32,000 bases of DNA from Candidatus Saccharimonas aalborgensis (GCF_000392435.1 NC_021219.1:420001-452000); one strand, 5' to 3'; numbered from the stretch's first letter, positions 226-23,691 are shown. Numbers and translations: made by a program. Notes: generated by a model not told the origin, from the letters alone.

Positions 226-1239
226 CTACTGTGTCACGACGTAATCAAAGGCAAACCCGCCCGGAGGCAAGGCTTCTGCCGTGCTAATCGAAAAACCGTT
301 TGAGGTACGGTTGATATAAAACCCATTGACCGCACGACCAACTGGGCTCACTACAACGTGAGGGGTGGTGGCATATTTAGTTTGAAAGCTAAGATTCACC
401 AGCGTTCCCCCGCCTGCATTTATCCCGGTGTTGATCGCAATAGTACCAGAGGTGTCATTGCCGCTAATCGAGACTGTCCCGTTACTGCCCGCCCCTGCCC
501 CTGCACTCACCGACGGTGCTGCTCCGGTGGTTATCAAGTGTCCAGCAACGGTCAGCGTATTGACCTGAAAGTTGCGCACCGATAGCGCCCCACCGATAGC
601 CAAACTGCCGACCACATTTACGTTATTGTTGACCGTTACCAACTGGTCGACAGTCAACTGGCCCTGAATCCGGGTTGTGCCGGCAACAGCGAGCTCCTTT
701 TGTAATTTGAGTGAGATCATGGTGCCGTCACCATTGACGCTCAGCTGTGAGGCAGCTACCGTACCGGCCTGAATCTTCGATAGGTTGGCCGCCGATGCCG
801 TCAGCGTATTGTTTAAGTTGAGCTGCCCTGACATACTGACATCACCCGCCACAGCAACCTTGCCATTGAACTTGGTATTTGGTCCGATCGTCAGGATGGT
901 CTCTGCACCACCACTTGGATTACGATCGACACCAAGTTTATTCAGCGCGTCCAGATTTACCGTGACGTTTTGCTGTGCCGCAGATACTGCATCAGCTTGA
1001 CCTTTCATCAGAAAGGCGATAACGACCGCATTCAAGATCAAGATAACCGCCACGACAGTGAGGCCGATGAAGGTTGCTTTGTGACTTGGCCGATACATAC
1101 TCCGACGCGGCGCAGGATCGGTACTAACCGCAGGTGCAGCCGATACCTGTGTATCGACGGTTGCATCAAGAGAGGAAGTCTGAACGGTCAAAACTTCGGG
1201 GCGCGGCGCGCTCGTTCCCTCTTTTTGGTCTTCGGTCAT
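226..1239 (-). CDS. Membrane-anchored surface protein: N-terminal TM helix, repetitive beta-helix-like region, conserved C-terminal beta domain. Function unknown.
   Basis: 337-aa ORF starting with ATG. An AGGGGA Shine-Dalgarno-like box lies about 6 nt upstream on the minus strand. One hydrophobic helix is present (FIGLTVVAVILILNAVVIAFLM). It is followed by a long Asn/Val/Thr/Gly-rich repetitive segment (..VAVAGDVSMSGQLNLNNTLTA.., ..VNNNVNVVGSLAIGGALSV..) typical of beta-helical fibre or adhesin proteins. The antisense ORFs at 358-585 and 785-1000 look spurious. Confidence 0.8.
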   Translation of the reverse strand: MTEDQKEGTSAPRPEVLTVQTSSLDATVDTQVSAAPAVSTDPAPRRSMYRPSHKATFIGLTVVAVILILNAVVIAFLMKGQADAVSAAQQNVTVNLDALNKLGVDRNPSGGAETILTIGPNTKFNGKVAVAGDVSMSGQLNLNNTLTASAANLSKIQAGTVAASQLSVNGDGTMISLKLQKELAVAGTTRIQGQLTVDQLVTVNNNVNVVGSLAIGGALSVRNFQVNTLTVAGHLITTGAAPSVSAGAGAGSNGTVSISGNDTSGTIAINTGINAGGGTLVNLSFQTKYATTPHVVVSPVGRAVNGFYINRTSNGFSISTAEALPPGGFAFDYVVTQ

Positions 1240-1350: not shown

Positions 1351-2094
1351 ATGGTAGGACGAATTAACGGCTACGGAGTGTTGGGGCTAGTTGTTGGCTG
1401 TGTGCTTCTTTGTTCTAACTATGTCTCCGCTGAGACACTACAGTCGAACAATTATCGCTTCGATGAATCAACACTCGGAGCAGGCGGACTCAACCAGTCG
1501 ACCTCAAATAGCTACGCCGGCTCGGGTGCCTACGGTGATATTGGTGTAGGAGAGTCTGCATCCAACAATTATCAGATACGAGTCGGAACACCGACGACTC
1601 CTGATCCTACCCTTACTATCGAACTACTCTCGACAAATGCTAACTTTGGCGTTCTCTCGCCTACCAGTGCTGCAACAGCGACAGCGTCATTTTCGGTGAT
1701 TAACTACACAAGCTATGGTTACGCGGTACAGCTGACTGGCAGTGCGCCGACAAATGGCGCTCACTCGATAAGCGCGATGGGTACCACGACTGTTTCACAG
1801 CCTGGCATTGAGCAGTTTGGTGTCAATCTTGTTGCCAATACCTCTCCCGTATCTTTCGGTGCAAACCCAGATAATGGCCAGTTCGGCTACGGTCAAGTTG
1901 GTACGGGAGCCGGTGATACCACGTACTCTACCCCTAATCAATTTCACTACGCCAGTGGTGATATCATCGCCAGTGCCCCCAAAAGTTCTGGCAAAACTAT
2001 CTATACCCTGAGCTACTTACTGAACGTTGCTGGTATTACGCCAGGTGGCCAGTACGCCAGCAACCAGACAATTATCGTCACCGGAACCTACTAA
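1351..2094 (+). CDS. Secreted small beta-rich protein carrying the WxL/SCPU-like module shared with the two downstream paralogues
   Basis: In-frame ATG at 1351 gives a signal-peptide-like N-terminus (MVGRINGYGVLGLVVGCVLLCSNYVSA/ETL). The track ORF from 970 would overlap the divergent gene 226-1239. The body aligns by eye with the C-terminal halves of the 2179 and 3463 proteins: NFGVL.., GYAVQLTG, IEQFGVNLVANT versus SQFGLNLRANT and SEFGMNLKLNT. The C-termini also match: GGQYASNQTIIVTGTY versus AGTYSTTLTYICTPTY. Confidence 0.8.
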   Translation: MVGRINGYGVLGLVVGCVLLCSNYVSAETLQSNNYRFDESTLGAGGLNQSTSNSYAGSGAYGDIGVGESASNNYQIRVGTPTTPDPTLTIELLSTNANFGVLSPTSAATATASFSVINYTSYGYAVQLTGSAPTNGAHSISAMGTTTVSQPGIEQFGVNLVANTSPVSFGANPDNGQFGYGQVGTGAGDTTYSTPNQFHYASGDIIASAPKSSGKTIYTLSYLLNVAGITPGGQYASNQTIIVTGTY

Positions 2095-2110
2095 AAGTCC
2101 TAAAAAGTTG

Positions 2111-2139
2111 TTGACATGCTATCTTGCTCATGCTATTAT
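2111..2139 (+). promoter_or_regulatory. Sigma70-type promoter upstream of the 2179 gene
   Basis: TTGACA (2111-2116), a 17-nt spacer, then TATTAT (2134-2139). It lies in the 84-nt gap after the 1351-2094 stop codon. The predicted leader is about 33 nt and A-rich (accaccataaaacaaaaaaatcaccaca ATG). Confidence 0.6.
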
Positions 2140-2178
2140 CTCTTGTAGAAACCACCATAAAACAAAAAAATCACCACA

Positions 2179-3348
2179 ATGAAAAAACAACTCACCACCA
2201 CACTACCACGCGCCTTAGGCGTGTTTATGCTTGTCGCGGCTTTTGTCGTACAAGCAGCTTTCCTACCAACTAACTCTGCCTACGCTTCGCAGATTACGAC
2301 GCGTACACTCACATTACTTGCTGGGGATAACAACACCCTCGGCATCAACGGTGGTTCTTTGCCTGGTCGCCTTGTACGCCATAAGTTCACCTTTACGCTA
2401 CCTACTGCGGCGAGCATCGGTGCGGTCCAATTCCAATACTGTACCACCGCCGCTGACGTTGGTGCAGCCACGTGCGTCCCTCCTACAGGACTCGACACGA
2501 CGACCGGTACTCTCGACGGAGCGACCGTCGGACTGACCGGACTCACTGTCGTACATGATTCGGCAAACGTCTTTCACGTTACCCGTGCACCAGGGGCGAC
2601 GCAGGCCCTCGCGGCAAACACTGCTGTCACCATTCAGCTCAATAACATCACTAACCCTACTGACATCAACAAAACCTTCTTTGTGCGTATTGCTAGCTTT
2701 GGCACCTTCGACGCAACTGGCGCGTCAACCGACAAGGGAACTGTGGCCGCCAGTACGACAAATGCCATCGATCTATCTGGAGTTATGCCCGAATCACTCG
2801 TCTTTTGTACGGGCAAGACAATTGGTCTCACCGCCGGTGTGCCGGATTGTACCACGGCCGATCTCAACGCAATTACCTTTAACCAGCTCTTTTCTCCTGT
2901 CGATACTGCCTCTGCAACATCACAGATGGCAGCCAGTACAAACGCAGGTTCTGGGTACAGTATTACTGTCAATGGCCCGACTCTAACCAGCGGTAGCAAC
3001 ACTATCCTCCCTATGAATGTGGCTGCTACTAGTACGCACGGAGTCAGCCAATTTGGTCTCAACCTACGTGCCAACACGACAACAACCCCTGGTCTTCCAT
3101 TTGGAACCGATGTCGCTCCAGTGTCCAATACAACCAACTACCGAGCAAAACCACTTGCGGGCTACGATACTGCAGAAACCTTCAAATACATTGATGGCGA
3201 CCCGGTTGCCGACAGTTCCGACGGCGGCACCCTTGGTGCCACCGATGCCCAAATTTACACCGTCAGTTACATCGCGAACGTGCCAGGTAGCCAGCCCGCC
3301 GGAACCTACTCTACTACCCTTACCTATATTTGTACTCCGACCTACTAG
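2179..3348 (+). CDS. Secreted two-domain surface protein, paralogue A (N-terminal Ig-like domain plus WxL/SCPU-like C-terminal domain)
   Basis: 389-aa ORF with a signal peptide (..FMLVAAFVVQAAFLPTNSAYA/SQ). It shares long identical blocks with the 3463 protein: GVMPESLVFCTG, FNQLFSP.DTA.ATSQMAASTNA, GYSITVNGPTLTSGSNTI, TLTYICT.TY. It is Thr/Ala/Gly-rich and has no TM helix after the signal peptide. Confidence 0.9.
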   Translation: MKKQLTTTLPRALGVFMLVAAFVVQAAFLPTNSAYASQITTRTLTLLAGDNNTLGINGGSLPGRLVRHKFTFTLPTAASIGAVQFQYCTTAADVGAATCVPPTGLDTTTGTLDGATVGLTGLTVVHDSANVFHVTRAPGATQALAANTAVTIQLNNITNPTDINKTFFVRIASFGTFDATGASTDKGTVAASTTNAIDLSGVMPESLVFCTGKTIGLTAGVPDCTTADLNAITFNQLFSPVDTASATSQMAASTNAGSGYSITVNGPTLTSGSNTILPMNVAATSTHGVSQFGLNLRANTTTTPGLPFGTDVAPVSNTTNYRAKPLAGYDTAETFKYIDGDPVADSSDGGTLGATDAQIYTVSYIANVPGSQPAGTYSTTLTYICTPTY

Positions 3349-3370
3349 TCCACCACGTGGCAGCTAGCCC

Positions 3371-3399
3371 ATACCGCGCTACGGTGATTTGCGCGGTAT
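3371..3399 (+). terminator. Hairpin after the 2179-3348 gene (possible weak intrinsic terminator)
   Basis: Perfect 9-bp inverted repeat: ATACCGCGC (3371-3379) and GCGCGGTAT (3391-3399) with an 11-nt loop. The trailing sequence is ttgctagtt. The U-tract is poor, so the function is uncertain. Confidence 0.35.
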
Positions 3400-3425
3400 T
3401 GCTAGTTATCCACACGCCGTTAGTG

Positions 3426-3455
3426 TTGACCACTTGTTTACGCTTATGATACAGT
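3426..3455 (+). promoter_or_regulatory. Promoter with an extended -10 box placed immediately before the 3463 ATG (predicts a leaderless mRNA)
   Basis: TTGACC (3426-3431), an 18-nt spacer, then TGa-TACAGT (3447-3455). Only 7 nt (atttcat) separate the -10 box from ATG 3463, and no Shine-Dalgarno sequence is present. Confidence 0.5.
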
Positions 3456-3462
3456 ATTTCAT

Positions 3463-4563
3463 ATGAGAAGTGTGAGGGGAAAACTTTATCTTTTGTGTGC
3501 ACTCTTGGTGTTCGCAAGTATTGCTTCTGTCTACCGGGCGCCGACTGCTAATGCCGCTCAGATTACCGTCCGCAGTCTTCAGCTTATAGGGGTAGGTACT
3601 ACCGGTGGATCACTTGCTGGTGGCACTGTTAACCACAAGTTTGCATTCACCATCCCCGGTGGTAACACTGTTGGTTCAATTAAGTTTGAATATTGTACGG
3701 TTGCGCAAGTCACAGCCTGTGTCATGCCCACCGGCCTCGTTACCACAGGAGCAACCTACGGTGGTGAAACAGGTGTGACTGGGTTTTCACTAGTGAATAC
3801 CACCAACGGTGCCCCGTATATTACCCGTACTGCTGCTGCCGTGGGAACGAACGTCGCCGCTACGTATACCCTCAATAGTGTTGTCAACCCTACCGCTGTT
3901 AATACAACGTTTTTTGTCCGTATTTCTACCTACACCTCAACCAATGCAACCGGTTCACCGCTCGATACTGGTAGTGTTGCGGCCAGCACAGCAAACCCCA
4001 TCGTTCTCCAGGGCGTGATGCCTGAGAGTCTTGTCTTTTGCACGGGTGCGACCGTCACTGTCGACTGTGTCACTGTTACCAACCCCACGATCAATTTCAA
4101 CCAGCTCTTTAGCCCAACTGATACCGCTACCGCCACGTCGCAAATGGCGGCCAGCACAAATGCCACCACTGGCTACTCGATCACTGTCAACGGTCCAACC
4201 CTCACCTCTGGGTCAAACACGATACCTGGTATGACTACAGCTGCTGGAATAACAAGAGGAAAAAGTGAGTTTGGTATGAACCTTAAACTCAACACTACCG
4301 CAACTTCAACAGTAGCCGTTGGTGCTGAGGTTACTCCTACTCCTGATGGGACAGATCTGCGTGGCCAGGCACAGACTGGCTACAACACCGTTGATCAGTT
4401 CAAATTTGTCACCGGGGAAACGGTTGCAGCGAGTAACAACGGTGGCGCCGGTCCAACAAATGCCCAGCTATACACCGTTTCATACATTGTCGATGTCGCT
4501 GGTAACCAGCTATCGGGCACTTATACCACCACATTAACCTATATTTGTACCGCTACTTACTAA
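3463..4563 (+). CDS. Secreted two-domain surface protein, paralogue B (tandem duplicate of the 2179-3348 gene)
   Basis: 366-aa ORF with a signal peptide (..LLVFASIASVYRAPTANA/AQ). It has the same domain order and the same conserved blocks and cysteines as paralogue A: FEYCT..TAC, LVFCTG....DC, TLTYICTATY. Confidence 0.9.
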   Translation: MRSVRGKLYLLCALLVFASIASVYRAPTANAAQITVRSLQLIGVGTTGGSLAGGTVNHKFAFTIPGGNTVGSIKFEYCTVAQVTACVMPTGLVTTGATYGGETGVTGFSLVNTTNGAPYITRTAAAVGTNVAATYTLNSVVNPTAVNTTFFVRISTYTSTNATGSPLDTGSVAASTANPIVLQGVMPESLVFCTGATVTVDCVTVTNPTINFNQLFSPTDTATATSQMAASTNATTGYSITVNGPTLTSGSNTIPGMTTAAGITRGKSEFGMNLKLNTTATSTVAVGAEVTPTPDGTDLRGQAQTGYNTVDQFKFVTGETVAASNNGGAGPTNAQLYTVSYIVDVAGNQLSGTYTTTLTYICTATY

Positions 4564-4567
4564 GCTT

Positions 4568-5566
4568 ATGAAACGATTTCTTGCCATCACACTCACCGTC
4601 ATCTGCCTCGTCGTTGCCACAGCGTTCTTTGTATTGCCACGCACCGCAAACGCCGCTCCCAATGATGGTGGTCAGGCGCTGGAAATCGCACCGCCAGTTC
4701 TTAATCTCACGGCAAATCCAGGTGATGTCATCAATGCACAGATTGCCATCAGGGACGTCTCGCCACTTCCACTGATTGTTTCGAGCCAGGTAAACGATTT
4801 TATAGCTGATCCGAATAGTGAGAACGGAAATCCGAAAACACTTGTCGATACTACTGAAAAAAGTCCTTACTCGATTATCGACTGGGTGTCACCGCTTCCC
4901 CAAATGACACTAAAGTCAAAGCAAATCGAAAACCTCCCCATCAAGATAACGGTACCAAAAAACGCAGCTCCTGGAGGCTACTACGGTACGATCCGATTTA
5001 CCGTCAGCCCACCAGATATGAAAGAAACTGGAGTATCGCTAAGTGCGAGTTTAGGGGCGCTCATCATGATCCGCGTCAACGGCGATGCAAATGAGAAACT
5101 GTCGCTCCAAGAGTTTTATGTTAGTAAGACTGGTGAAAAAGGCTCAATATTTGACTCTGTCCCTCTACAATTTACTGAGCGAATCAAAAATGAGGGGAAT
5201 GTCTTTGAGCAACCACGAGGCAATATCATCATCAAGGATATGTTCGGAAATATCACTGCAAATGTCAATGTCAATCTTGAGAATCGAAATGTGCTCCCCA
5301 ACTCAACCAGACGCTTTGAGCAGCCATTTGATGAGTCTGCCCTCGGGAACCGATTTATGTTCGGTTACTATACTGCAGAGTTAACTCTTAGCTACGGAAA
5401 GAACCAGACCCTCACCTCACGATTGTCATTTTGGATCATCCCGTGGAAACTCATCCTTGGTATACTCATCCTACTCGCTGTACTTATCTTTGTAGGACGT
5501 ATCATGATCAAACGATACAATGAACGCCTACTCGGCAAGTCACGTAGCCGCTCTCGACGACGCTAA
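4568..5566 (+). CDS. DUF916/DUF3324-like (WxL-interacting-protein-like) cell-surface protein with a C-terminal membrane anchor
   Basis: 332-aa ORF starting 4 nt after the previous stop codon. It has a signal peptide (..FFVLPRTANA/AP) followed by two Ig-like halves. Motifs include LEIAPPVLNLTANPGDVINAQIAIRDVS..., ...ITVPKNAAPGGYYGTIRF, and ...IKNEGNVFEQPRGNIIIKDMFGN....VLPNSTRRFEQP....GYYTAELTL. A C-terminal TM helix (WKLILGILILLAVLIFVG) and a basic tail (KSRSRSRRR) follow. This architecture and motif pattern match my memory of Firmicute DUF916+DUF3324 proteins encoded next to WxL genes. Confidence 0.65.
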   Translation: MKRFLAITLTVICLVVATAFFVLPRTANAAPNDGGQALEIAPPVLNLTANPGDVINAQIAIRDVSPLPLIVSSQVNDFIADPNSENGNPKTLVDTTEKSPYSIIDWVSPLPQMTLKSKQIENLPIKITVPKNAAPGGYYGTIRFTVSPPDMKETGVSLSASLGALIMIRVNGDANEKLSLQEFYVSKTGEKGSIFDSVPLQFTERIKNEGNVFEQPRGNIIIKDMFGNITANVNVNLENRNVLPNSTRRFEQPFDESALGNRFMFGYYTAELTLSYGKNQTLTSRLSFWIIPWKLILGILILLAVLIFVGRIMIKRYNERLLGKSRSRSRRR

Positions 5567-5590
5567 GCACTAGCGGTATGTATGAAATGA

Positions 5591-5599
5591 TGCTACAGT
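5591..5599 (+). promoter_or_regulatory. Extended -10 box immediately upstream of the 5606 ATG
   Basis: TGc-TACAGT (5591-5599), then 6 nt (atagct), then ATG 5606. This is the same TGnTACAGT box as at 3447-3455. No convincing -35 element is present. Confidence 0.4.
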
Positions 5600-5605
5600 A
5601 TAGCT

Positions 5606-6568
5606 ATGCCTGCATGGGTAAAGATTAGTGAACATAAACACACCGGTAAACTACGCTCCCACGAACACACCTCGTACGTGTTCTTAGGTATGTTGCTTTT
5701 TGTGGTAGGCTTTGCTCTCACTTCGTTTACGAGTTATGCCTACGTGGGACGCGGACCAGGCGCTGGTTCGGTTGGTATGAGTGGTGTCGTCGCGGGCAAA
5801 CCGCCGACATCGGCCGCACACATTACCTCGCCTACCGACGGACAGCATTTTAGTACGACACCGATCACCGTCAAGGGTACTTGTCCGACCGATAGTCTGG
5901 TAGAGATTTTCAAAAATGACATTTTCGCTGGTTCAACTCCCTGTACTACTGACGGCAGCTTTAGTCTGGAGTCAGACCTCTTGATCGGTGCAAATGTTGT
6001 GTATGCAAAGGTCTATGATGCTCTCAACCAAGCGGGGCCTGATTCAAATAAAATTACCGTCTGGTACGATGTACTCGGTATACAAGGTGGAATATTGACC
6101 TCACTCAACTTTGGCGGTAACCAGCTACTCATCAATACTGATGCAATTTTTCGAGGAACATTTCCCAATCAGGAAATGACAATGCCCATCGATATTATCG
6201 GAGGACGCGCACCATATGCAGTAAATATCCAGTGGGGAGATGGTACGAATAAGGTTGTTTCTCGCACCGACAATCAAACATTTCGGGTTGGTCACGTATA
6301 CGAAAAGGCTGGTACCTATCAGCTTTCACTTCAGGCCACCGATGCCGACGGCCGTGTCGCATTTTTGACGGTCGCTTCAATCGTAAACGGTCAGCCTCCT
6401 GTCGCCGAAACCACGACACCCTCAAAATCTGTGACAGATAACCTGTTATTATTGTGGCCGCTGTACGCCGCTACCTTTGCTGTTGTCATCAGTTTTTGGA
6501 TCGGTGAATGGCGAGAAAAAAGGATGCTCGCCAAGCACCATTTGCTGATTCTTGATCAAAACGTCTAG
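5606..6568 (+). CDS. Membrane protein with hydrophobic helices at both ends and extracellular Ig-like and PKD-like domains
   Basis: 320-aa ORF. It has a His-rich N-terminus (SEHKHTGKLRSHEHTSY) followed by a TM helix (VFLGMLLFVVGFALTSF). An Ig-like segment follows (ITSPTDGQHFSTTPITVKGTCP...). A PKD-type signature is present: IQWGDGTNKV....VGHVYEKAGTYQLSLQATDADG. A C-terminal TM helix closes the protein (LLLLWPLYAATFAVVISFWIG). Confidence 0.8.
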   Translation: MPAWVKISEHKHTGKLRSHEHTSYVFLGMLLFVVGFALTSFTSYAYVGRGPGAGSVGMSGVVAGKPPTSAAHITSPTDGQHFSTTPITVKGTCPTDSLVEIFKNDIFAGSTPCTTDGSFSLESDLLIGANVVYAKVYDALNQAGPDSNKITVWYDVLGIQGGILTSLNFGGNQLLINTDAIFRGTFPNQEMTMPIDIIGGRAPYAVNIQWGDGTNKVVSRTDNQTFRVGHVYEKAGTYQLSLQATDADGRVAFLTVASIVNGQPPVAETTTPSKSVTDNLLLLWPLYAATFAVVISFWIGEWREKRMLAKHHLLILDQNV

Positions 6569-6781: not shown

Positions 6782-9700
6782 ATGCCAGTAACTATCTTTC
6801 GTGCGTTAAGCCGATCACTATTGGGCGCCCTTTTTGTGGGCGTGTTTGTCGTATCTGGAATTATAGGAGTGGCACCTCAGACAGCGCATGCCGCAACCGG
6901 TATTAACCAACAAATGAACTTTCAAGGCCGACTGCTCAACGCTCAGGGTGCAGTAGTCCCTGACGGCTACTACAATATCCAGTTCAAGATCTACCAGGAT
7001 GGTACCGGTACCACCGCAGGAAACCCTGGTGGAACCCTCAAGTGGACAGAGGATTGGCTCAACACCGCTGGAAACGGTGTCCAGGTCAAAAATGGCTTTA
7101 TGTCAGTACAGCTTGGAACAATCAACCCCTTTGGTAGTCAAGTCGACTGGAACCAAGACACGCTGTGGCTGAGCGTGAATATCGGCACTACCAACACTAC
7201 CTGTACGCCATTTAGCTCCTGTGGTGGCGATGGAGAAATGGTACCAATGAAGCGTCTTGCATCTGTTGCCTACGCGATGAATGCCGGCTCGCTCGGCGGC
7301 CTAACAGCGAGCGGATTTATCCAAAATACCACAGTACCTCAATCGGCTAATATCGCTGTGCAAAGCGCAAGTGCAAGCAGTGTAGGTGCAATGGTACAAG
7401 GTGCATCATCTCAATCCGTAGACCTCTTTCGGCTCCAAGATAGTAACGGTAACGTCAATGCCGCCTTCAATAACAACGGTGATCAGCTCACGCTCGGCAG
7501 AATTAGTACTACCGGCACCGTCACGCAAGGAAAACTAGTATTTAATGATGGGACGCTTGATGGCTATGGGCTCACAATTCAGTCTGGCACGCAGACGGGC
7601 AACTATACCCTGACCCTCCCGAGTCTGGCTGGTAATGCAACGGTATGTACGAGTAATTCAACTGCCACCTCTGCCTGTACAAACTTTATCCAAAACCAGA
7701 CGACGCTACAGGCCGCCTCAAACTTTCACATCTCTGGCACTGGTCAGGCCGATACCGCTATCATCACACCAGCTATTCGACCAACAAGTGACTCCACCAC
7801 AGCCCTTAAAGTACAAAATGCTGCTGGTACCACAGACATCATGACAATAGACTCGACAAATAACCGTGTCGGTATAGCCTTAGCAAATGGCGAAACCGCA
7901 TCATATGACCTCAGTTTCGGCGGTGGAACTGATCGGATCATCGGAGTCAATACAAACACAAGTACAGGGGTAGGACGCTCCCTAACGTTACAAGGTGGTG
8001 GTGGTAACGGCACTAATCAAGCCGGTGGTGCGGTTAACATTATCGGTGGTGCACCAACAGGTTCAGGGGTGCGAGGTGCGGTTAACCTCCAAACAACCGT
8101 CAATGGTGATGTCAATATAGGAAATGCCGGGAGCGCTGCTAACACCGTCACACTGACTGCCGGTGCAACCAATGGTATTAAGCTTGTTTCGGACAAGATA
8201 ATGGTTGGTAATGCCACCACCACAACCACTATCCAAAAAACTACACAAACCACTGCCGGCCAAGCTGGGCAGCAGCTCACCATCCAGGGTGCTACCAGCG
8301 GTACAACTGGAGTGGGTGGTGCAGTGCTCATCCAGGGTGGTAATAGCGCAACTGGTACGACTGGCGGCAACCTCACTCTGGCCGGTGGAACCGGTACCAC
8401 ATCAAACGGTCTTGTTATACTCAATACGTCAGCCTTCCAGACGATCGCCAATGATGCCAACTGTTTCCCAAGTGGCACTGAATCAACCTCATCATCTGGG
8501 TGTACTGTCGCTCAGACATCCGTCAACAACTATGCTTCTGTCATCGTCGGGTTTACCCAAGATGGACAAACAGCAACCCTCCCAGATCCAAGTATTGCAA
8601 CTGCTGGACGCGTCGTTTACGTGACTGCATCAAATCTCACAAAGGACTTTACACTGAGTGTCAATGGTGGTGGCCAAGGCAATCAGATTGCAATGCGTAA
8701 GAATACAACCGCAACGATGATCTGGAATGGCGCTGATTGGACGGCTGCGGGTGCATCGAGCTCGACTACCCTCCAGGCTGCCTACGACAACACACTCCAG
8801 AGCGCCGGTGGCGCCGAACTCGTCGTCAGTAAAACCAGTGCGACCAATGGTCTGACCATTCGTGATAGCTCTACCAACCCTGTGAATGGTACGCTCCTCA
8901 GCGTCCAGACAAAAAGCGCGGCAGGCTTGCTCCAGGTCAACAGCAATGTCACTGAATATGCCAGCAATGCCGGTGCAGAGACTGCCGGTGCCAGTGCCAC
9001 AACCTTCCCGGCCAGCACTTGGAGTAGCACCGGTACTGCCACGGTCACCCGCCAAAATGTCGCCGGTAACTATATCGCCACTGGTCAAGGTTCTGTATCG
9101 ATTGCCGCAACCGCCGCTAACAGTGGTGCCAAAAACCAACTCATCAATAGCGGTGGTAGTGCCGCCGCCTTGACAGCCAACACTACCTACAACGTCAGCT
9201 TCACTACTCGTCTCACCAGCGGTTCAAGTACGTTTACTGACCTCAATGTGCAATATTCGGCTGATGGCAATACCACCCTCCTCACTGCTTGTGGTGCCAC
9301 CTCAGCTGTCAACACAAGTATCTGGACCAAGGTCAACTGTACCTTCACGACGCCCGCTAGTGGTATCACCAGCGGCAACGCGATCCTCATTCGCCAAACT
9401 GCCAGTGCCACCCGCACCTTCTACGTCGACAACCTCAGTGTCACGATTGCTGCCGATTACAACTTTGCCACCGACGGCAGTGTGACTGATGCTGGCAACT
9501 ACGCGACAAACTGGCCGACTGCCGGACAAGGTACAGTTGCGAGCTCACGTATTATCACTGACGGTAACGACGCCAGCGACAGCGCCCAAGCCAACGTGAC
9601 GGCCGGTGCAGCCAACGCCGGTATCCGTAATAAACTATCGTCAAATCCGCTCAGTTCAACGCTTTACCGCGTCACCGTCTATGGCAAGCTCATCTCTGGT

Positions 9701-10681
9701 GCTGCGTTTAACGACTTCAAGATACGCTATAGTTATCTTGGCAGCACCTCAACCACCGCTGGCGACTACGTGGACTGTGTCGACTATAACGCGCAGACGC
9801 TGGTTACGACCGGCTGGACGAAAGTAACGTGTTACATCCAAACTGATGCCAATGCCGCGACCAACCCTTACGTCTACTTCGTCGAAGCGACTTCGGGCGT
9901 ACGAACCTTCGCCGTTGACTCGTTTAGCATGACACTGGCGAGCATCACCACACCAAATGTTCAGGTCGGTGGCGGTATTAACGGTGGCCCAACCACACTC
10001 TTCACACTCGACAAAGGGGCAAGCGCACCAATCGCCAGCAACAACGATGCGCTGCTCGGCAGCATGTACTACGACACCACGCTTGGAAAGCTGCAGTGCT
10101 ACGAGGCTGATGGTTGGGGTGCCTGTGGTTCCAGCCCAGACAACATTGTCACTATCTCTCCAGAGTACACAAATGCGGTGCTCCACGGAACTGGTATCGG
10201 GACAATGACCAGCGACATCTGTTCAAGCACCCTCCAAATCAACGACGGGGTCAGTGGACGGCCCAGCGTCTGTGGGACAAATGAAACGTACAACTTCTAC
10301 AAATGGACTAGTCCTCAGGCCACAACTCAAACCTATAGTATCTATGTGACCTACCAGTTACCGAGTACCTTCAAGAGCTTCAACTCAGGTCAAGCCTCAC
10401 TCATGGCTCGTACCGATAACGGAAGCAGTGGCGGCTCATCAAGCGTTCAGTACCAAATATATCGAAATAACGGCAGCGGTCTTTTACCCTGTGGTTCAGC
10501 AGTCAGCGTTTCAAGTGGCACACAAACTTCATGGCTGACCGGTACGGCAACCGGTGCCGCCGACCCATCGACCTGTGGCTTTGCGCCTGGCAACAGTATC
10601 GTCTTCAAGATCGACATGACAACCAGTAAAAACGCGAACGCCTACGTTGGTAACCTCAACTTTGCCTTTAGCAACAAGTAG
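6782..10681 (+). CDS. Giant secreted surface protein/adhesin (1299 aa) with two tandem CBM-like jelly-roll modules
   Basis: The signal peptide is ..GVFVVSGIIGVAPQTAHA/AT. The N-terminal module reads INQQMNFQGRLLNAQGAVVPDGYYNIQFKIYQ...LKWTEDW...VQVKNGFMSVQLG. A Gly/Thr/Asn-rich beta-helix-like middle follows (GGAVNIIGGAP.., GGAVLIQGGNS..). Two repeats end in SIWTKVNCTF...TRTFYVDNLSVT and TGWTKVTCYI...VRTFAVDSFSMT, a pattern typical of carbohydrate-binding modules. All antisense and off-frame ORFs inside this gene look spurious. Confidence 0.9.
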   Translation: MPVTIFRALSRSLLGALFVGVFVVSGIIGVAPQTAHAATGINQQMNFQGRLLNAQGAVVPDGYYNIQFKIYQDGTGTTAGNPGGTLKWTEDWLNTAGNGVQVKNGFMSVQLGTINPFGSQVDWNQDTLWLSVNIGTTNTTCTPFSSCGGDGEMVPMKRLASVAYAMNAGSLGGLTASGFIQNTTVPQSANIAVQSASASSVGAMVQGASSQSVDLFRLQDSNGNVNAAFNNNGDQLTLGRISTTGTVTQGKLVFNDGTLDGYGLTIQSGTQTGNYTLTLPSLAGNATVCTSNSTATSACTNFIQNQTTLQAASNFHISGTGQADTAIITPAIRPTSDSTTALKVQNAAGTTDIMTIDSTNNRVGIALANGETASYDLSFGGGTDRIIGVNTNTSTGVGRSLTLQGGGGNGTNQAGGAVNIIGGAPTGSGVRGAVNLQTTVNGDVNIGNAGSAANTVTLTAGATNGIKLVSDKIMVGNATTTTTIQKTTQTTAGQAGQQLTIQGATSGTTGVGGAVLIQGGNSATGTTGGNLTLAGGTGTTSNGLVILNTSAFQTIANDANCFPSGTESTSSSGCTVAQTSVNNYASVIVGFTQDGQTATLPDPSIATAGRVVYVTASNLTKDFTLSVNGGGQGNQIAMRKNTTATMIWNGADWTAAGASSSTTLQAAYDNTLQSAGGAELVVSKTSATNGLTIRDSSTNPVNGTLLSVQTKSAAGLLQVNSNVTEYASNAGAETAGASATTFPASTWSSTGTATVTRQNVAGNYIATGQGSVSIAATAANSGAKNQLINSGGSAAALTANTTYNVSFTTRLTSGSSTFTDLNVQYSADGNTTLLTACGATSAVNTSIWTKVNCTFTTPASGITSGNAILIRQTASATRTFYVDNLSVTIAADYNFATDGSVTDAGNYATNWPTAGQGTVASSRIITDGNDASDSAQANVTAGAANAGIRNKLSSNPLSSTLYRVTVYGKLISGAAFNDFKIRYSYLGSTSTTAGDYVDCVDYNAQTLVTTGWTKVTCYIQTDANAATNPYVYFVEATSGVRTFAVDSFSMTLASITTPNVQVGGGINGGPTTLFTLDKGASAPIASNNDALLGSMYYDTTLGKLQCYEADGWGACGSSPDNIVTISPEYTNAVLHGTGIGTMTSDICSSTLQINDGVSGRPSVCGTNETYNFYKWTSPQATTQTYSIYVTYQLPSTFKSFNSGQASLMARTDNGSSGGSSSVQYQIYRNNGSGLLPCGSAVSVSSGTQTSWLTGTATGAADPSTCGFAPGNSIVFKIDMTTSKNANAYVGNLNFAFSNK

Positions 10682-10698
10682 CTACCTCTTCACGGTTA

Positions 10699-10707
10699 TG
10701 GTACAAT
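10699..10707 (+). promoter_or_regulatory. Extended -10 box between the two giant genes
   Basis: TGg-TACAAT (10699-10707), 18 nt downstream of the 6782-10681 stop codon. It is 18 nt upstream of GTG 10726 and 33 nt upstream of ATG 10741. Confidence 0.35.
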
Positions 10708-10725
10708 AACAGAGAAGCCACCCCG

Positions 10726-13700
10726 GTGGATAGTGAGGGTATGAAGAGAAAAAATCAATCAAGTCAGCGTAAACACGACATCGGCCGACTACGGCACGGG
10801 CGTATTGAGAGTTGTTTGTCATTGGTAAAGCGTTTCACAAAAGTAACGGCAAGCGGGAAACGCTATATTGTCATACCTGCGCCCACCAAGAAGGGCTTGC
10901 TGCGGTTTGGTCTTATTATCGTCATTGTTACCGCCATCACTGCTATTGGTTATCAGTTGTATCGTTATTATGGACCGCATAACTACCAACTCAGTTCAGC
11001 TGGAAAGTTGCTTACGCCCCCTAGCGATGTGCTTGCAAAAAGCCTCTTATTCGATGCGAAGCAACAGATCTATAGTTTCATAAACGGGAGAGCAAGCACA
11101 CCAGAATCAAAACAAAGTGGTGCGGGCCTTGTCGCCGCGACTATACCTGTCGATGCCGCGAAGGGTATGGTGGTCACCGACCCCAACTACAAAGTTGACC
11201 TCACTATTACTCCCCAATTTGCGGTCGCAAATGGCCAACAAGATCAAAACCGCGTCGTATACCCATTTCGCGACCACAGCGGCTGGCTAGTATATACCGC
11301 TGAGGGGACAGGCATCAAAGAAGACATCGTGCTCTCAAAGGCACCCGGCAACGAGGCGTCATTTACTTATTTGCTGAAACTACCTGACGGCACTGAAGCA
11401 CGGCAAGAGTCAGATGGTAGTATTGGTGTCTATGGTAACGAGCTCTTCATCAACAACATCTCTGCAGGTTCCGATGCAGACGCCGCTCTCCTCAAGAAAG
11501 CCCGCGAAAATGCCAAAAAATCCCTATTACTTTTTGTCATACCAAGCCCAATTGTCAAAGAGTACGGCAAGCAAACTTCGCAGGTTGAGGCGTCGTTTCA
11601 CCTCGAGAAAAATCGTCTCACCGTCACCGCCAAGGAACTCACCAAAGCTACCTACCCGCTGACCATCGACCCAAGCATCTACGTGGTCACCGCCCAGCAG
11701 TTCATGAATGGTAACAACGAGACCAACATCAATTTCGACGTCGCTAACAAACTTATTAAGAAGGGCCGTACCACTGGCGCGCGATTTGACACGTGGAACA
11801 GCGCGACCAAATTACCTCAGGGAAACTGGGCTGGCGGTACGGCAGTTGCTGGTGGCTACCTCTACTCGGTCGGTGGCCTTTCACTCAACGGCCAGATCTA
11901 CACCGCGCAGGGTGCAAGTACATTTACTGTCCCGGCTGGCATTACAAGCCTCTCTGTCAAGGTATGGGGGGGTGGTGGAGGTGGTGGTGCCGGCGGTTCA
12001 GCCGCCGCCGGAGGCACCGGTGGAGGAGGTGGCTATGTATCGGGAAGTGTAGCGGTCACACCGGGCGAAACTCTCACTGTATATGTCGGTGGTGGAGGCG
12101 CAACTGGTACTCGCAACACTGCTGGTGGTGGAGGTGGAGGTGGTGGCTACTCCAGTATTTACCGAGGCGCAACCCCACTGGCAATCGCTGCTGGTGGTGG
12201 AGGTGGAGGTGGTGGCCGTAACTCAGCTGGTAATACAGGTGGCGCTGGTGGCGCTGGTGGCGGCACGAATGGTATCGCTGGCACAACATCTGGTGCTGGT
12301 GGAGGTGGTGGCGGTGGTACTCAGTCTGCTGGTGGCGCCGGTGGTACTGGCGGTACGAACGCAGGTTCAGCTGGTAGCTCACTCACTGGTGGTCTTGGTG
12401 GTGACGGACGCACCAGTGGTACAACCGACGGAAGTGGCGCAAGTGGTGGTCTTGCAAGTGGCGGTAACGGTGGCGGCGTCATAGCTACCAGTCGTGCCGG
12501 TGGTGGTGGTGGTGGCGCTGGGTACTTTGGTGGTGGTGGTGGATCGAGCTCATCAAGCGGCTCTGGTGCTGGGGGTGGTGGTAGCGGCTCAAGTTTTGTT
12601 TCAGGTAGCCTCACAACCACAGCTGGTGGCGGCCAAAATCCTGGTAATAACACCGATACTGACCGCTCCGGTGCGGGCCAAGGAGGTAACGCGGGTGCAA
12701 CGGGCGGCACGGGCACTGGCGGTAGCAATGGTATCATCATCATCAACTACGGAGCAGGCGGCACAACCACAAGCACCACGCTCAACTGGATTCACCTTTC
12801 AACTACCGACGGTTCACTCGAAAGCCCAAACCCCGGCAACGGAGCCTGTAGCGGCTGGTGCACCGACAGTGCCTACAATCTCCCTGAAGCACGGAGCAAC
12901 TACTCGCTAGTCGCCTACAATGGCTTCCTGTACGTCATCGGCGGACTCAACGGCAGCGGTGTTCCTCAAACAACAATCTATGTCGCAAAGCTCGGTGCCA
13001 ATGGTGAGCCCCAGCTTTGGAACCCAACATGGAACCCGACAACTGACCCAACCAAGACAACCTGGAGCTACTGGTATACCAACAACGTGAGCTTATCAAG
13101 TGCCCGCTCCGACATCACTGCCGCCGCGTACAATAACCGTTTGTATGTCATGGGCGGCAGAGCTGCCAGCAATACTATCGTTAGTACCGTCGAAGTCGCT
13201 GACCTCACGCCAACTGGGCAAATCGGCAGCTGGAGTGCTCAGACGTCACTTCCCTATAACGCATATGGTCATGGCGCGACCGTATACAACGACCGTCTCT
13301 ACATCATCGGTGGTAGCAGTACCGTCGGAGGCGGGCCCCGCACCGATGTGTATTACAACAAGATTAACACAAACGGTACCATAAATAGTTGGCAGCAGAC
13401 ATCGAGTTTCGCGACTGGACGCTTTTCTGGTGGCGGCAACTTCGTAACAGTCTGGGGAGCATTTATGTATATATCGGGTGGTTGTAGTGCAGTCAATGCC
13501 AGTGGATACTGTTCAACTGTGCAAAGTAATACACAGGTCGCAAGTATCAACACCGATGGAAGTCTCGACGTATGGAATACAGTTGGCACGGTGTCGAATC
13601 AGCGGTTTGGTCATGGGCTTTTCGCATGGCGTGACAATATCTACGAGGTTGGTGGCTGTTCTGCCCAAAATACCAGTACGGGTGCATGTACCGTTACCCT

Positions 13701-19383: not shown

Positions 19384-20520
19384 TCACCTACGCTTAGTGT
19401 CATGTTTTTTTGTATGCGTTTCTTCAATCGGCTCTTCATCTATGCTGGTCGGTATGTCATCAAGGAGGACTTTTCCGAGGGTATAGACATAGACAATGTC
19501 ATCGCGGACAATCAAGAATCTTGTTGCTTCATTTCCTGCTGGCGTCGCAACGATCGGTACTTTTAGTTCCTCCTCTAGATTGAGCATATCGTCGAAAGTC
19601 TGAACTGGTACCATGGTCTTACCTGCAATTGCAGCAGGCTGGCTCGCGCGGATGATGATACCATCGTGGTACCGATAGATTTTTTCGAGCTCTCGCTGGT
19701 AGGCTGATTTAAATATCTGTCTGCGCATGCCATACACTATCGCCATGAGACCAAACGCCGTTAGAATGCCCATGATAATTCGCTCATAATTTTTTGTCAT
19801 ATCTTGCCCTGACTTCATCGCCTGTGTGACAACTTGTTTCTTGTCTTCTTTTTCAAACTTGGTCGCAAATCGATAAATTGGCTGGTCCAGTGGCATCGTG
19901 ACCGTCGCGACTCTGATGTCGTCGAACCGTGTTCCATCAATCGAACCAGAAACGTGAACTGTAAAGGCAATTGTAACTTCCGAAGTAGCCGGCAGGGAAA
20001 GTGCTTGCTTCATTTGATTGACCATTTTTCGATAGTCTGCAAATGGTATCGATACCGAAGGGTCAAATGTAAGGTCAGAAGTTGTCACCACAGACGTGAC
20101 TGGCTTAATAAGCGAGTACTCTTTTGACCAGACGGTCGATATGTCCTTGCTGTCAGCTCCAAACATATACTGATAACGAACCGTTGCCGTCGCACCATAC
20201 AGTGTCGTCAATTCTACCGGCCGAGCGCTATGATACTTATAGTGAAGTGTTGCCTTTACCTCGTCAGTCAGGTCTGCGACATAGGCGGTGTTATTTGCAG
20301 CTGGTCCCTTATCATAAAAACTACTATTAAAATAGCTGACTCCCGTATCTACTGCCTGATTTACGGTGTAGTCGTAGCCGGTAGGGCTCACGGGAGTTGC
20401 GTCACTAGTATGCCCTAGGTCATAAAACAGCAACGCCGCACAAACAAGTAGCAACATCCCCAATAATACAAATCCAAATGACCGCTGAGAATGTTCTGGA
20501 TTTGCTATATCAAGTGCCAT
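19384..20520 (-). CDS. Two-TM membrane protein, DUF5305-like, the last gene of the SipW/TasA-type operon
   Basis: 378-aa ORF with AAGGGA 5 nt upstream of the ATG. There is an N-terminal TM helix (FGFVLLGMLLLVCAALLFY) and a large extracellular domain. A second TM helix (IIMGILTAFGLMAIVYGM) is followed by a cytoplasmic tail (..YRYHDGIIIRAS....VQTFDDMLNLEEELKVPIV....FLIVRDDIVYVYTLG). The topology and the position next to a SipW-like peptidase match my recollection of the DUF5305 family. No search was run. Confidence 0.6.
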   Translation of the reverse strand: MALDIANPEHSQRSFGFVLLGMLLLVCAALLFYDLGHTSDATPVSPTGYDYTVNQAVDTGVSYFNSSFYDKGPAANNTAYVADLTDEVKATLHYKYHSARPVELTTLYGATATVRYQYMFGADSKDISTVWSKEYSLIKPVTSVVTTSDLTFDPSVSIPFADYRKMVNQMKQALSLPATSEVTIAFTVHVSGSIDGTRFDDIRVATVTMPLDQPIYRFATKFEKEDKKQVVTQAMKSGQDMTKNYERIIMGILTAFGLMAIVYGMRRQIFKSAYQRELEKIYRYHDGIIIRASQPAAIAGKTMVPVQTFDDMLNLEEELKVPIVATPAGNEATRFLIVRDDIVYVYTLGKVLLDDIPTSIDEEPIEETHTKKHDTKRR

Positions 20521-20535
20521 GCCGTCCCTTTCTTT

Positions 20536-21699
20536 TTACTTTGCAAATTCCTTGAGCCAGACACTTGGGTATCCGACATAAGGTACCTGAGCACGTACAA
20601 TGCCGACGATCTGATCTGCCTGCACCGGCATGTCGGGGCTCGGGCTATTGTCGCCTTGCGTCAGAAAAACGCGTTTCCCTGATCCATCCGACGTGAAGTC
20701 GATCGCAATCACGCGGTGGGTCGTTGAGTGGCCCGTTGCTTCATATTGTACGATATCTCCTACCTGGACGTCCATCGGATTCGCCTTTTGCACAATCACA
20801 ACTGCTCCTCTCTCATAAACTGGTTTCATGCTATTACTCATGATTACTTGGGGCCGATAACTAAACGCTCCCGTCATGAAACTAATAAGCGCAATCATTA
20901 CTATGACGAAAGCAATGTTTTGAGTGTCACGCGCCCGTTGATGATGCCGGGTCGGCTCGGCTATATCATGTCGGTTTCGATCAATGGCGATATACACGCC
21001 AACCGCCAGTGCCGTCCAGGCAATACCCGTCATATACCAATCATACTTAGGGATGATAGGGGGCACAAACATCACGGCAATAACTCCCAGTCGATACGTA
21101 AGCTGCGAACCAAGTCCCGCCGTAAACGCGAGATACGTCAAAAGGACGCTGCTCGCAAATGCAGGTACGAGGCTAGACACGGTTATTTTTGTGAAATCCG
21201 CGATTGAGGCTGCATTATCAAACTGGGAAAAGCTGATTTGTTGAACGGAAAATAACGTGCCAATGATAACACCAAGCCACACAACGTTGCGTCTCCCCCC
21301 TAATAGCATAATTCCGTGTCGTACATACTCTAAGGCGGCAGCCGTAACACCAAATGTGGCAAGATTTATCACAACCGTCTGCCAGTTAACTGCTACTGCA
21401 TTATTTACATAGGTGACCGCTAAACCAGACAAGAAGTAGAGAACAAACCAAACCGATAATACCGAGCTAATGATGAGGCTTTTCTCTGCCTTATGGCGCA
21501 CTCGATCATGTTGTCCGCGGGTCACTTGACGAGTAATGAGTGCTGTGGCCGTAACCAATATCGGCTGCAACACACTGAGCGAAATCGATGCGCTAATTAT
21601 TCCGACGCGCTCGAGTATAACCGGAAGCAAAATAGCGATCAGCGCCAATAGGCACAAATACCATACTACAACCTTGATGGTCCGAGCCTTCCGAAACAT
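20536..21699 (-). CDS. Fusion protein: polytopic membrane domain (about 280 aa) plus a C-terminal ER/archaeal-type (SipW-like, S26B) signal peptidase I domain
   Basis: The C-terminal ~105 aa read IMSNSMKPVYERGAVVIVQK...GDIVQYE....THRVIAI......FLTQGDNSPSPD. These give the Ser box (SxSMxP), the His box (HRV) and the GDN..D box of SipW/Sec11-type peptidases. The N-terminal part has roughly eight or nine hydrophobic segments by eye. The ATG overlaps the upstream TAA by 1 nt (TAATG). Confidence 0.85.
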   Translation of the reverse strand: MFRKARTIKVVVWYLCLLALIAILLPVILERVGIISASISLSVLQPILVTATALITRQVTRGQHDRVRHKAEKSLIISSVLSVWFVLYFLSGLAVTYVNNAVAVNWQTVVINLATFGVTAAALEYVRHGIMLLGGRRNVVWLGVIIGTLFSVQQISFSQFDNAASIADFTKITVSSLVPAFASSVLLTYLAFTAGLGSQLTYRLGVIAVMFVPPIIPKYDWYMTGIAWTALAVGVYIAIDRNRHDIAEPTRHHQRARDTQNIAFVIVMIALISFMTGAFSYRPQVIMSNSMKPVYERGAVVIVQKANPMDVQVGDIVQYEATGHSTTHRVIAIDFTSDGSGKRVFLTQGDNSPSPDMPVQADQIVGIVRAQVPYVGYPSVWLKEFAK

Positions 21700-22511: not shown

Positions 22512-22525
22512 CGCTACTGATTCCG

Positions 22526-23023
22526 TTAATTTTGAACGTAATTAAAGGTAATCGTCGCTGCTTTGTTGGCGCCGCTCGGGTTTGTCGAAGCACTAGCAGC
22601 CCATGTCACACTGATGGTAGCGGTTGTGGAAGCGTTGGGAGCCAAGGTATCGTTGACCGCTACACCACTGATTGCATACGTCAGGTAGGTTGGCGCGCCG
22701 CTGTTGATGGCGGTCAGGTTGGTGATAGTGCTCAACTTTGCGTTGATGTTGCCCTTGTTTTTGATGACGACTTGGTATGACGACGTTGCGCCAGGGTACG
22801 CTAGGTCGACATTAAACGTCGCTGAGGTAGCCGTAAATGATGGTGTACTGGCATGATCGGTGGCACCGACCTGTCCGGTGGGCGTGATACTGATGATTTC
22901 TACTGCCCAGTTACCAGTAGCAGTACCGGTACCATTGACAGTGAGTGTTGTCGCAAACGATGCGTACGCGATCGACGCCGCCGAGACGAGCACGATTGCG
23001 AGTGATATAATTTTGTTTCTCAA
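22526..23023 (-). CDS. TasA-like / SipW-dependent-signal secreted subunit, paralogue 2
   Basis: I chose TTG 23023 as the start. It gives (M)RNKIISLAIVLVSAASIAYASF.., colinear with paralogue 1 (MRNKIVAAALVLVAVASVAYAAF..), and has the same AAAGGAA Shine-Dalgarno box 9 nt upstream. Shared blocks are GNW.VEIISIT, TSATFNVDLAYPGAT, KNKGNINAK and VTW. The track start at 23098 adds 25 non-homologous residues that run through a promoter. Confidence 0.85.
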   Translation of the reverse strand: MRNKIISLAIVLVSAASIAYASFATTLTVNGTGTATGNWAVEIISITPTGQVGATDHASTPSFTATSATFNVDLAYPGATSSYQVVIKNKGNINAKLSTITNLTAINSGAPTYLTYAISGVAVNDTLAPNASTTATISVTWAASASTNPSGANKAATITFNYVQN

Positions 23024-23066
23024 CGAGATGTTTCCTTTTGTATATTGTGTCCTATACCTATCTAGA

Positions 23067-23134: not shown

Positions 23135-23156
23135 GAAACGTAGCTATACGTTGTTT

Positions 23157-23660: not shown

Positions 23661-23691
23661 ACAGAATGGTTCCTTTTATGTTTAGTTGTGT

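Follow-up and report, generated by a model that had tools for sequence, protein, structure and literature searches.

A probable Pam pilus operon in Candidatus Saccharimonas aalborgensis and the kinship of its chaperone-like protein with the WxLIP family

Members of the Saccharibacteria live on the surface of Actinobacteria, and the means by which they find and hold these hosts are poorly understood. Here, we analyze a 32-kb stretch of the genome of Candidatus Saccharimonas aalborgensis (NC_021219.1, 420001-452000; hereafter the window, from the start of which all positions are counted), and in particular a locus of five genes, g1 to g5, at positions 1351 to 6568. An original prediction, made from the DNA sequence by itself, had read this locus as a Csc/WxL-type cell-surface complex. 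We conclude that it is very probably an orthologue, in the compact Saccharimonadia form, of the Pam pilus operon of the candidate phyla radiation (CPR), and we infer that its products form a donor-strand-exchange pilus that uses neither an usher nor a sortase. Four of the five genes would receive names from NCBI's pipeline, and the system is of a kind already described.

The Pam system has been described in CPR bacteria, mainly Saccharimonadia and Microgenomatia, in a recent preprint (Troman et al., bioRxiv 2026, doi 10.64898/2026.03.03.709456; hereafter the Pam preprint). The preprint reports cryo-electron microscopy (cryo-EM) of two filaments, PamA and PamB, of Candidatus Mycosynbacter amalyticus, a Saccharibacteria-related parasite. 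Both subunits have two domains, and the inter-domain linker strand of one completes the truncated immunoglobulin (Ig)-like C-terminal domain of its neighbour, which is donor-strand exchange; the donated linker and its binding site are given as the most conserved parts of the pilins. Also encoded in the M. amalyticus operon are a tip subunit of one domain (PamT), another pilin (PamE), an RbmA-like protein anchored by a transmembrane (TM) helix (PamR), and two PapD-like chaperones with C-terminal TM helices (PamC and PamD), while an usher is absent. The NCBIfam models for Pam proteins (June 2026) derive from this work.

A second system of interest is the WxL/Csc cluster of Bacillota, which comprises a short WxL protein, a long WxL protein, a WxLIP protein (DUF916, DUF3324 and a TM helix), and an LPXTG protein (Hassan et al. 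2023, PMC10599100). In WxL systems, a strand of WxLIP completes the β-sandwich of the WxL protein.

Pam family membership of the five-gene locus

Five open reading frames (ORFs) on the plus strand fill exactly the span in which the original prediction had placed five co-oriented genes:

g1, PamT: 1351..2094, plus strand, 247 amino acids (aa); putative tip subunit with a signal peptide, a conserved low-confidence N-terminal region, and a single Pam pilin C-terminal domain
g2, two-domain Pam pilin: 2179..3348, plus strand, 389 aa; signal peptide, N-terminal domain, linker, and C-terminal domain (NF058581)
g3, second two-domain Pam pilin: 3463..4563, plus strand, 366 aa; linker and C-terminal domain (NF058581)
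g4, membrane-anchored chaperone-like protein of the WxLIP (DUF916/DUF3324) family, in the putative role of PamC/PamD: 4568..5566, plus strand, 332 aa; assigned from an AlphaFold2 (AF2) model, Foldseek, and hhalign
g5, PamR: 5606..6568, plus strand, 320 aa; RbmA-like putative terminator and membrane anchor (NF058578)

When the products were searched against Pfam and NCBIfam release 20 with curated cut-offs applied, g1 matched the PamT equivalog NF058579 with 257.2 bits (cut-off 240), covering profile positions 7-241 of 241, and g5 matched the PamR equivalog NF058578 with 340.2 bits (cut-off 300). The Pam_pilin_C model NF058581 (cut-off 55) was matched by g1, g2, and g3 with 148.7, 145, and 137 bits, respectively; Pfam gave no match in these three proteins. 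The order of the genes in the window (T-pilin-pilin-chaperone-R) is also the T-A-E-D-R order in which accessions appear in the Pam preprint and, by gene order, g2 would occupy the position of M. amalyticus PamA. The three models and the preprint thus overturn the claim that a locus of this kind had not been described.

The arrangement is conserved well beyond this genome. A pattern scan of species-representative genomes found relatives of g4 in 121 places, and our synteny counts, made by tblastn of the window proteins, cover 80 of these 121 loci, all from Saccharibacteria and each from a different species. Gene order was near-invariant across the 80 loci, running from an upstream gene on the minus strand through PamT, two two-domain pilins, g4, and PamR to two further genes, g6 and g7 (see below). 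g4 was present in 80 loci, g5 in 76, g1 in 70, g6 and the upstream gene in 69 each, and g7 in 41; most absences fall at contig ends, and many loci stop before the position of g7. Exactly two two-domain pilins were found in 63 of the 70 complete loci, and the remainder carried 0, 1, 3, or 4 (e.g., L066 and L073), which suggests duplication and loss of major subunits. Where the source organism was named, the lineage labels read Saccharibacteria, Saccharimonadales, or Patescibacteria, and the others simply "bacterium". Of the genome contigs matched by g4, that of Ca. Saccharimonas aalborgensis is the closest, with 100% identity. The gene-neighbourhood survey therefore bears out the supposition that the genes are syntenic in related genomes, the order being shared in 80 loci, and the five-gene Pam operon with its flanking genes appears to be near-universal in Saccharimonadia.

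As had been predicted, g1, g2, and g3 are secreted proteins with a common C-terminal module, and the motifs proposed for it (NFGVL/FNQLF, YGYAVQL/GYSITV, QFGxNLxxNT, and a terminal GxYxxx(h)T...TxTY) were all found, in register. Along the full length, the products of g2 and g3 share 50% identity (E 2e-107), and g1 shares with them its C-terminal ~150 residues alone (33% identity, E 1e-15). The C-terminal domain occupies residues ~95-247 of g1 (nucleotides [nt] 1633-2091), ~230-389 of g2, and ~206-366 of g3 (nt 4078-4560). Upstream of it, both two-domain pilins carry the linker GVMPESLVFCTG, at residues 201-212 of g2 (nt 2779-2814) and 184-195 of g3 (nt 4012-4047). This linker is near-invariant over 148 two-domain pilin homologues and is a putative donor strand. 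Conservation in the same 148 sequences peaks at the first strand past the signal peptide (AAQITVRSLQL), at the linker, at the start of the C-terminal domain, and at the C-terminal strand, in agreement with the preprint, which places the highest conservation in the donated linker and the site that binds it.

The mature two-domain pilins contain five cysteines, an odd number, at positions 88, 99, 210, 224, and 385 of g2 and 78, 86, 193, 202, and 362 of g3, each invariant in 146-148 of the 148 homologues. The putative donor linker (VFCTG) holds one of them and the C-terminal strand (YICT) another, and mature PamT has zero cysteines. The odd count might point to a disulfide between subunits or to a free thiol.

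The AF2 model of g1 has a C-terminal domain with a predicted local distance difference test score (pLDDT) of ~90, and a Foldseek search of this model against the PDB returned CsuE, PapA, the TasA fibre, the PapG pilin domain, FimF/G, CsuA/B, CfaB, and PapE. We also noted that residues ~28-85 of g1 (window 1432-1605) are strongly conserved over 70 species, yet predicted to be disordered (pLDDT <50), and that this N-terminal region carries three S-x-N-Y-type repeats (SNNYRF, SNSYAG, and SNNYQI). Binding may bring order to this region, or the region may act as an adhesive element of the tip.

The original prediction had described the fifth gene product as a PKD/Ig protein with a C-terminal TM anchor, and both the domains and the terminal hydrophobic segment are present in g5. 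Pfam detects a PKD domain (25.2 bits, cut-off 23.5) and a Big_7/Glucodextran_B Ig domain, and hydrophobic segments lie at residues 21-39 and 279-297. A semi-conserved GxVGMSGxVxGKPP stretch follows the first hydrophobic segment; this stretch and the C-terminal TM helix fit the proposed role of g5 as a terminator and anchor. The products of g1-g4 have hydrophobic N-terminal signal sequences with A-x-A-like ends, as read by eye with support from a hydrophobicity scan.

What the analysis shows is the family membership of g1, g2, g3, and g5, the fold and WxLIP homology of g4, and the conserved synteny. The donor strands, assembly order, and function that we propose draw on the cryo-EM and AlphaFold work on M. 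amalyticus and on the conservation patterns above. All five products would be exported by Sec. The membrane-anchored, two-domain g4 would cap the groove of a pilin by donating a β-strand, for which GVSLSASLGALI, at the end of its first domain, is the candidate. The linker strand GVMPESLVFCTG of the next g2 or g3 subunit to arrive would then displace the chaperone strand, and the fibre would grow from its base. PamT (g1) would be found at the tip, because it has the acceptor domain and lacks the linker, and PamR (g5) would plug the last subunit and tie the fibre to the membrane via its TM helix. Such a fibre is thought to make the first contact with the actinobacterial host, and the earlier suggestion of a host-attachment fibre fits the identification of a Pam pilus. 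The giant proteins encoded downstream may also participate in the pilus.

Remote homology of the chaperone-like protein g4 to the WxLIP family

The layout foreseen for g4 (a signal peptide, two Ig-like halves, a C-terminal TM helix, and a basic tail) was recovered in its AF2 model, which has a pLDDT of 84; the TM helix covers residues ~293-315, and the helix in the model spans 293-330. Its description as a DUF916/DUF3324-like protein holds at the level of the family, although g4 itself is sub-threshold, scoring 16.5 bits against PF06030 (WxLIP_PGBD, equivalent to DUF916), where the cut-off is 27.3. PF06030 was matched by 35 of 42 close homologues and by 69 of 86 distant homologues, the latter collected by an exhaustive HMMER search, with a best E value of 3.8e-9. 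PF11797 was matched by none of the g4-family members examined, and the second domain of g4 falls below this model. The g4 family is large: HMMER retrieved 8976 representatives (clusters at 50% identity) at E<=1e-3 and 5002 at E<=1e-10.

Comparisons of profiles and of folds led to the same family. A tblastn search of g4 against plasmids returned mostly DUF916-annotated proteins, from Paenibacillus, Rossellomorea, and Clavibacter, and the Paenibacillus and Rossellomorea genes have a neighbour that encodes a Pfam-confirmed WxL protein. By hhalign, the g4 family aligned to the three DUF916 proteins from these genera with 99.5% probability (E 1.5e-22). It aligned to the WxLIP of Enterococcus raffinosus with 96.7% probability over 286 columns, running from the signal peptide through both domains to the TM helix. 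We verified that the E. raffinosus cluster is canonical, with a short WxL protein, WxLIP, an LPKTG protein, and a long WxL protein with leucine-rich repeats (Pfam PGBD 121 bits, HBD 134 bits, and WxL 70 and 78 bits). When the g4 model was searched with Foldseek against the whole PDB, the top matches were the Enterococcus faecium WxLIP 9i25_C, annotated as "bound to long WxL" (E 2.3e-10), and 9i1y, followed by RbmA and then by the chaperone-usher chaperones CfaA, YadV, CsuC, Caf1M, and DraB (E 1e-8 to 1e-7). In a search of PDB sequences with the g4 family profile, EfmWxLIP1 ranked first (E 0.003). On this evidence we place the Pam chaperone in the WxLIP (DUF916/DUF3324) family as a remote homologue, and this link is the new point of the present analysis. 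The terms WxL, DUF916, DUF3324, Csu, and SCPU never occur in the text of the Pam preprint, and our literature search found no paper connecting WxL or DUF916 with CPR bacteria.

The candidate for the donated strand lies in the segment GVSLSASLGALIMI, residues 155-168 of g4 (nt 5030-5071). Its first part, GVSLSASLGALI (residues 155-166), ends the first domain, is nearly invariant, has alternating hydrophobic residues, and shows a low pLDDT in the monomer model; its position corresponds to that of the G1 donor strand of PapD-like chaperones. Conservation, hydrophobic alternation, and low pLDDT together suggest that GVSLSASLGALI is the strand that g4 donates. By analogy, the completion of the WxL sandwich by WxLIP can be regarded as mechanistically the same act as donor-strand complementation by a chaperone.

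Two further observations on plasmids concern the distribution of the family. A Clavibacter phaseoli plasmid (L083, 4933-6747) encodes a DUF916-family protein and an adjacent small secreted partner without a Pfam family at E<=0.01, and plasmids of Deinococcus (H1 and H2) gave weak g4-like matches. These observations indicate that WxLIP-type systems are not confined to Bacillota. The original prediction was aware of no such locus outside Firmicutes; DUF916 partners also occur elsewhere, as in Clavibacter.

Comparison with related systems and rival explanations

The likeness of the locus to the Pam system extends from PamT, PamR, and the pilin C-terminal domain, all above cut-offs, to the two-domain pilins with their conserved linker, a TM-anchored, two-Ig, chaperone-like protein, the lack of an usher and a sortase, an origin in Saccharimonadia, and the same gene order. 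Several points nonetheless weigh against the identification or set the locus apart from the type system. As described in the preprint, M. amalyticus has two chaperones, PamC and PamD, and pilins of 55 kDa (PamA) and 39 kDa (PamB) as well as PamE, whereas the locus here has one chaperone gene and two paralogous pilins of ~38 kDa. According to the preprint, ATP synthase genes are typical neighbours and the pilins have two or three cysteine pairs; we found no ATP synthase genes within the window, and the pilins here have five invariant cysteines. NCBIfam has no model that matches g4 or 86 of its relatives, and g4 is likened to PamC and PamD of M. amalyticus by fold and description rather than by direct sequence alignment. 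The pilin fold comparison is that of the g1 model, whose matches to chaperone-usher pilins are weak (best E 4e-3, none <=1e-3). Neither a Pam pilin chain nor a WxL chain came up when PDB sequences were searched with g3, g4, the PamT profile, and a two-domain pilin profile, and the sequence set searched seems to lack the deposited PamA and PamB models. The order of Pam assembly in the preprint is itself built on AlphaFold models.

Under the WxL reading, g1-g3 would be WxL-like proteins held non-covalently on peptidoglycan and g4 would stabilize them by strand insertion, making a static adhesin rather than a polymeric fibre. The whole-length homology of g4 to WxLIP is genuine and favours this reading, as do the completion of the WxL sandwich by a WxLIP strand in WxL systems, the presence of a small and of larger clients with a common C-terminal domain, and a last-strand motif in common, GxYxxxLT[WY]. 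The clients themselves speak against it. The original prediction had likened their C-terminal module to the WxL domain with Trp replaced by Tyr, and we rejected a WxL identity for g1-g3, as PF13731 had no match at E<=1 in these proteins or in 52 relatives from the alignment of PamT and C-terminal domains. By hhalign, the Pam C-terminal domain gave 13% against WxL profiles, from signal peptides only, and 2.2%, 0.1%, and 1.5% with trimmed alignments, compared to 64% over 118 columns for a positive control, Paenibacillus WxL against Enterococcus WxL. The narrow profile of 19 Paenibacillus WxL homologues was widened with WxL proteins of Rossellomorea, Clavibacter, and Enterococcus, and the result was still negative. 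Trp-x-Leu motifs are absent from g1-g3, the positions reading G-Y-S-I and L-T-Y-I in g2 and g3 and G-Y-A-V and Q-T-I-I in g1. The only local alignment that recurred between Pam and WxL proteins was the last β-hairpin, ...YTVSY...GTYTTTLTYICT against ...GTYKSVFTYTAT or HYTGDLTWSLD; it is not significant, and it is the likeness that the original prediction had picked up. The WxL chain of 9i25 was not among the top 50 fold matches, which chaperone-usher pilins dominate. The definition of a WxL cluster, at least two WxL proteins and one WxLIP, does not describe this locus, which also lacks an LPXTG protein and has the TM-anchored g5 instead; WxL proteins are moreover described as peptidoglycan-bound adhesins, not filaments, while the Pam preprint (doi 10.64898/2026.03.03.709456) reports homologous Pam pilins as filaments by cryo-EM. 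We therefore consider the WxL reading unlikely.

The fold matches might instead point to a true archaic chaperone-usher pilus of the Csu/SCPU type that came from a diderm bacterium. CsuE and the CsuA/B pilus are among the top folds for g1, g4 matches CsuC and other chaperone-usher chaperones, and the likeness to the Pap/Fim, CFA/I, and Csu systems includes an incomplete Ig-like pilin domain, a two-domain chaperone fold, a logic of tip and terminator, and the donor-strand complementation and exchange that the preprint demonstrates for PamA and PamB. Saccharibacteria are not known to have an outer membrane, which counts against a system of this type. No usher-family match was found among the window ORFs scanned, and a true chaperone-usher pilus was rejected; SCPU and Fimbrial Pfam families had no match at E<=1 in g1-g3 or the 52 relatives, and PapD_N was matched by one of 42 g4-family sequences, at E 0.03. 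In sequence, g4 is nearer to WxLIP than to PapD, its homologues in genome contigs are from Saccharibacteria or Patescibacteria wherever a lineage is named, and it is TM-anchored, unlike the periplasmic chaperones of chaperone-usher systems. Pam systems differ further in their donor strand, an internal inter-domain linker and not an N-terminal extension, and in the extra N-terminal domain of their pilins. Acquisition of such a pilus is thus extremely unlikely, and of the original suggestion of SCPU/Csu-type pilins the fold likeness to Csu, Pap, Fim, and Cfa pilins stands, but not membership in the SCPU or Fimbrial families. Fold and family evidence together nevertheless make a Csu-type pilin with donor-strand exchange a better description of the clients than WxL. 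A sortase pilus was also rejected, with no sortase among the window ORFs scanned and no C-terminal LPXTG sorting signal in g1-g7, in line with the original remark that a sortase motif is absent. TasA fibres of Bacillus subtilis are a donor-strand-type β-sandwich polymer of a monoderm, and 8aur_A was the third-ranked fold match of g1; TasA, however, is chaperone-free and SipW-processed, whereas the pilins here come with a dedicated chaperone-like partner and with signal peptides of the ordinary kind. The products might also form no fibre at all but an S-layer-associated or matrix set in the envelope, in which the C-terminal module docks to wall or membrane and g4 and g5 are independent Ig-like proteins. 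That the evidence comes from genes, that the fold matches of g1 are weak, and that g5 resembles the biofilm matrix protein RbmA by its NCBIfam name would all be compatible with this arrangement. Against it stand matches at equivalog level to proteins with homologues that the preprint models in filament density, the near-invariant linker strand and groove-forming C-terminal domain, and the finding that the five genes strictly co-occur in 80 species, and we regard it as very unlikely.

A broader reading goes beyond the Pam identification that we prefer. One ancient monoderm system may have branched into both the Pam pili of CPR bacteria and the WxL/WxLIP clusters of Bacillota and Actinomycetota; in it, the membrane-anchored two-Ig protein would serve as an usher-less, strand-donating chaperone or assembly platform. 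We put this forward tentatively and think it possible rather than probable. Its chaperone half is well supported; homology of the clients and functional equivalence are not supported by the sequence and fold tests.

Flanking genes, other features of the window, and significance

Around the operon lie the following features:

upstream gene: 226..1239, minus strand; 337-aa conserved single-pass membrane protein, divergently transcribed
sigma-70-like promoter match in the g1-g2 gap: 2111..2139, plus strand; TTGACA-17-TATTAT with extended TG, 11/12 consensus, a pattern match alone
g6: 6782..10681, plus strand; 1299-aa secreted protein with no family match, syntenic with the operon
g7: 10726..16383, plus strand; 1885-aa Kelch-repeat, glycine-rich surface protein with an N-terminal hydrophobic anchor, syntenic in loci whose flanking sequence extends that far

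The two giant ORFs, of 1299 and 1885 aa, lie directly downstream of the locus, where the original prediction had noted two giant surface proteins. In a same-species genome (L001), g1-g5 and the upstream gene are 98-100% identical to the window. In the counterpart of window 6782-16383 (L001 12215-20994), g6 is only 82-84% identical with its middle part unaligned, and g7 is only 69% identical. The products of g6 and g7 look like strain-level hypervariable surface proteins beside a conserved pilus core. Across loci, the N-terminal ~200 aa and the C-terminal ~800 aa of g6 are conserved and its middle is variable. Searches of Pfam, NCBIfam, and PHROGs gave no match for g6, so that the "tail fibre-like" label in the preprint was not confirmed for it; by its position, g6 may be that neighbour. 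g7 matched Kelch families in Pfam (E down to 1.6e-41) as well as Gly_rich_2. On a Paenibacillus urinalis plasmid (L082, 7493-10639), we observed a DUF916 and WxL cluster followed by a gene for a 1048-aa RCC1 β-propeller protein with a weak C-terminal WxL match; its place downstream of the cluster parallels that of the Kelch giant g7 downstream of the Pam operon, as an analogy only.

The upstream gene product has a hydrophobic segment at residues 50-68, a repetitive extracellular part, and a sub-threshold bactofilin-like match (E 7.5e-4). PHROGs, Pfam, and NCBIfam searches gave no family for it, and neither the original prediction nor the part of the Pam preprint text covered here mentions it. 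The match in the g1-g2 gap may give the major pilin genes a promoter of their own. In a scan of the region for promoters and terminators, the total number of sites was not above that in shuffled controls, and one strong promoter-like site stood out.

Apart from the Pam operon, the window holds a possible second fibre cluster on the minus strand (19384-24571) and a set of defence- or mobile-type genes at its end (28105-31889):

DUF5305 protein: 19384-20520, minus strand; possible second fibre cluster
archaeal/SipW-type signal peptidase I: 20536-21699, minus strand; TIGR02228, 87.5 bits (cut-off 51.85)
270-aa protein: 21699-22511, minus strand; possible second fibre cluster
two paralogous small secreted proteins: 22526-23098 and 23157-23660, minus strand; possible second fibre cluster
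helix-turn-helix and SocA/Panacea antitoxin-like protein: 28105-28902; defence/mobile-type gene
GmrSD-N and HNH endonuclease: 29518-30708; defence/mobile-type gene
EcoRI-type adenine methyltransferase: 30705-31889; defence/mobile-type gene

In the 19384-24571 cluster, all three substrates have an A-[AL]-F-[SA] motif immediately past their hydrophobic segment, which recalls TasA-like proteins processed by SipW.

As an orthologue of a system first reported in 2026, the locus is in itself ordinary, and the remaining novelty is the link between its chaperone and WxLIP. This link ties a CPR pilus both to a widespread, poorly understood surface system of Gram-positive bacteria and to the chaperones of chaperone-usher systems, and it opens WxLIP to a new, testable reading as a chaperone that donates a strand. 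If the broader reading of a shared origin were true, WxLIP would be primarily a chaperone and not a host-binding protein, and WxL proteins could be divergent, possibly polymerisable, pilin-like clients. For Saccharibacteria that can be transformed, the Pam operon provides a defined genetic target.

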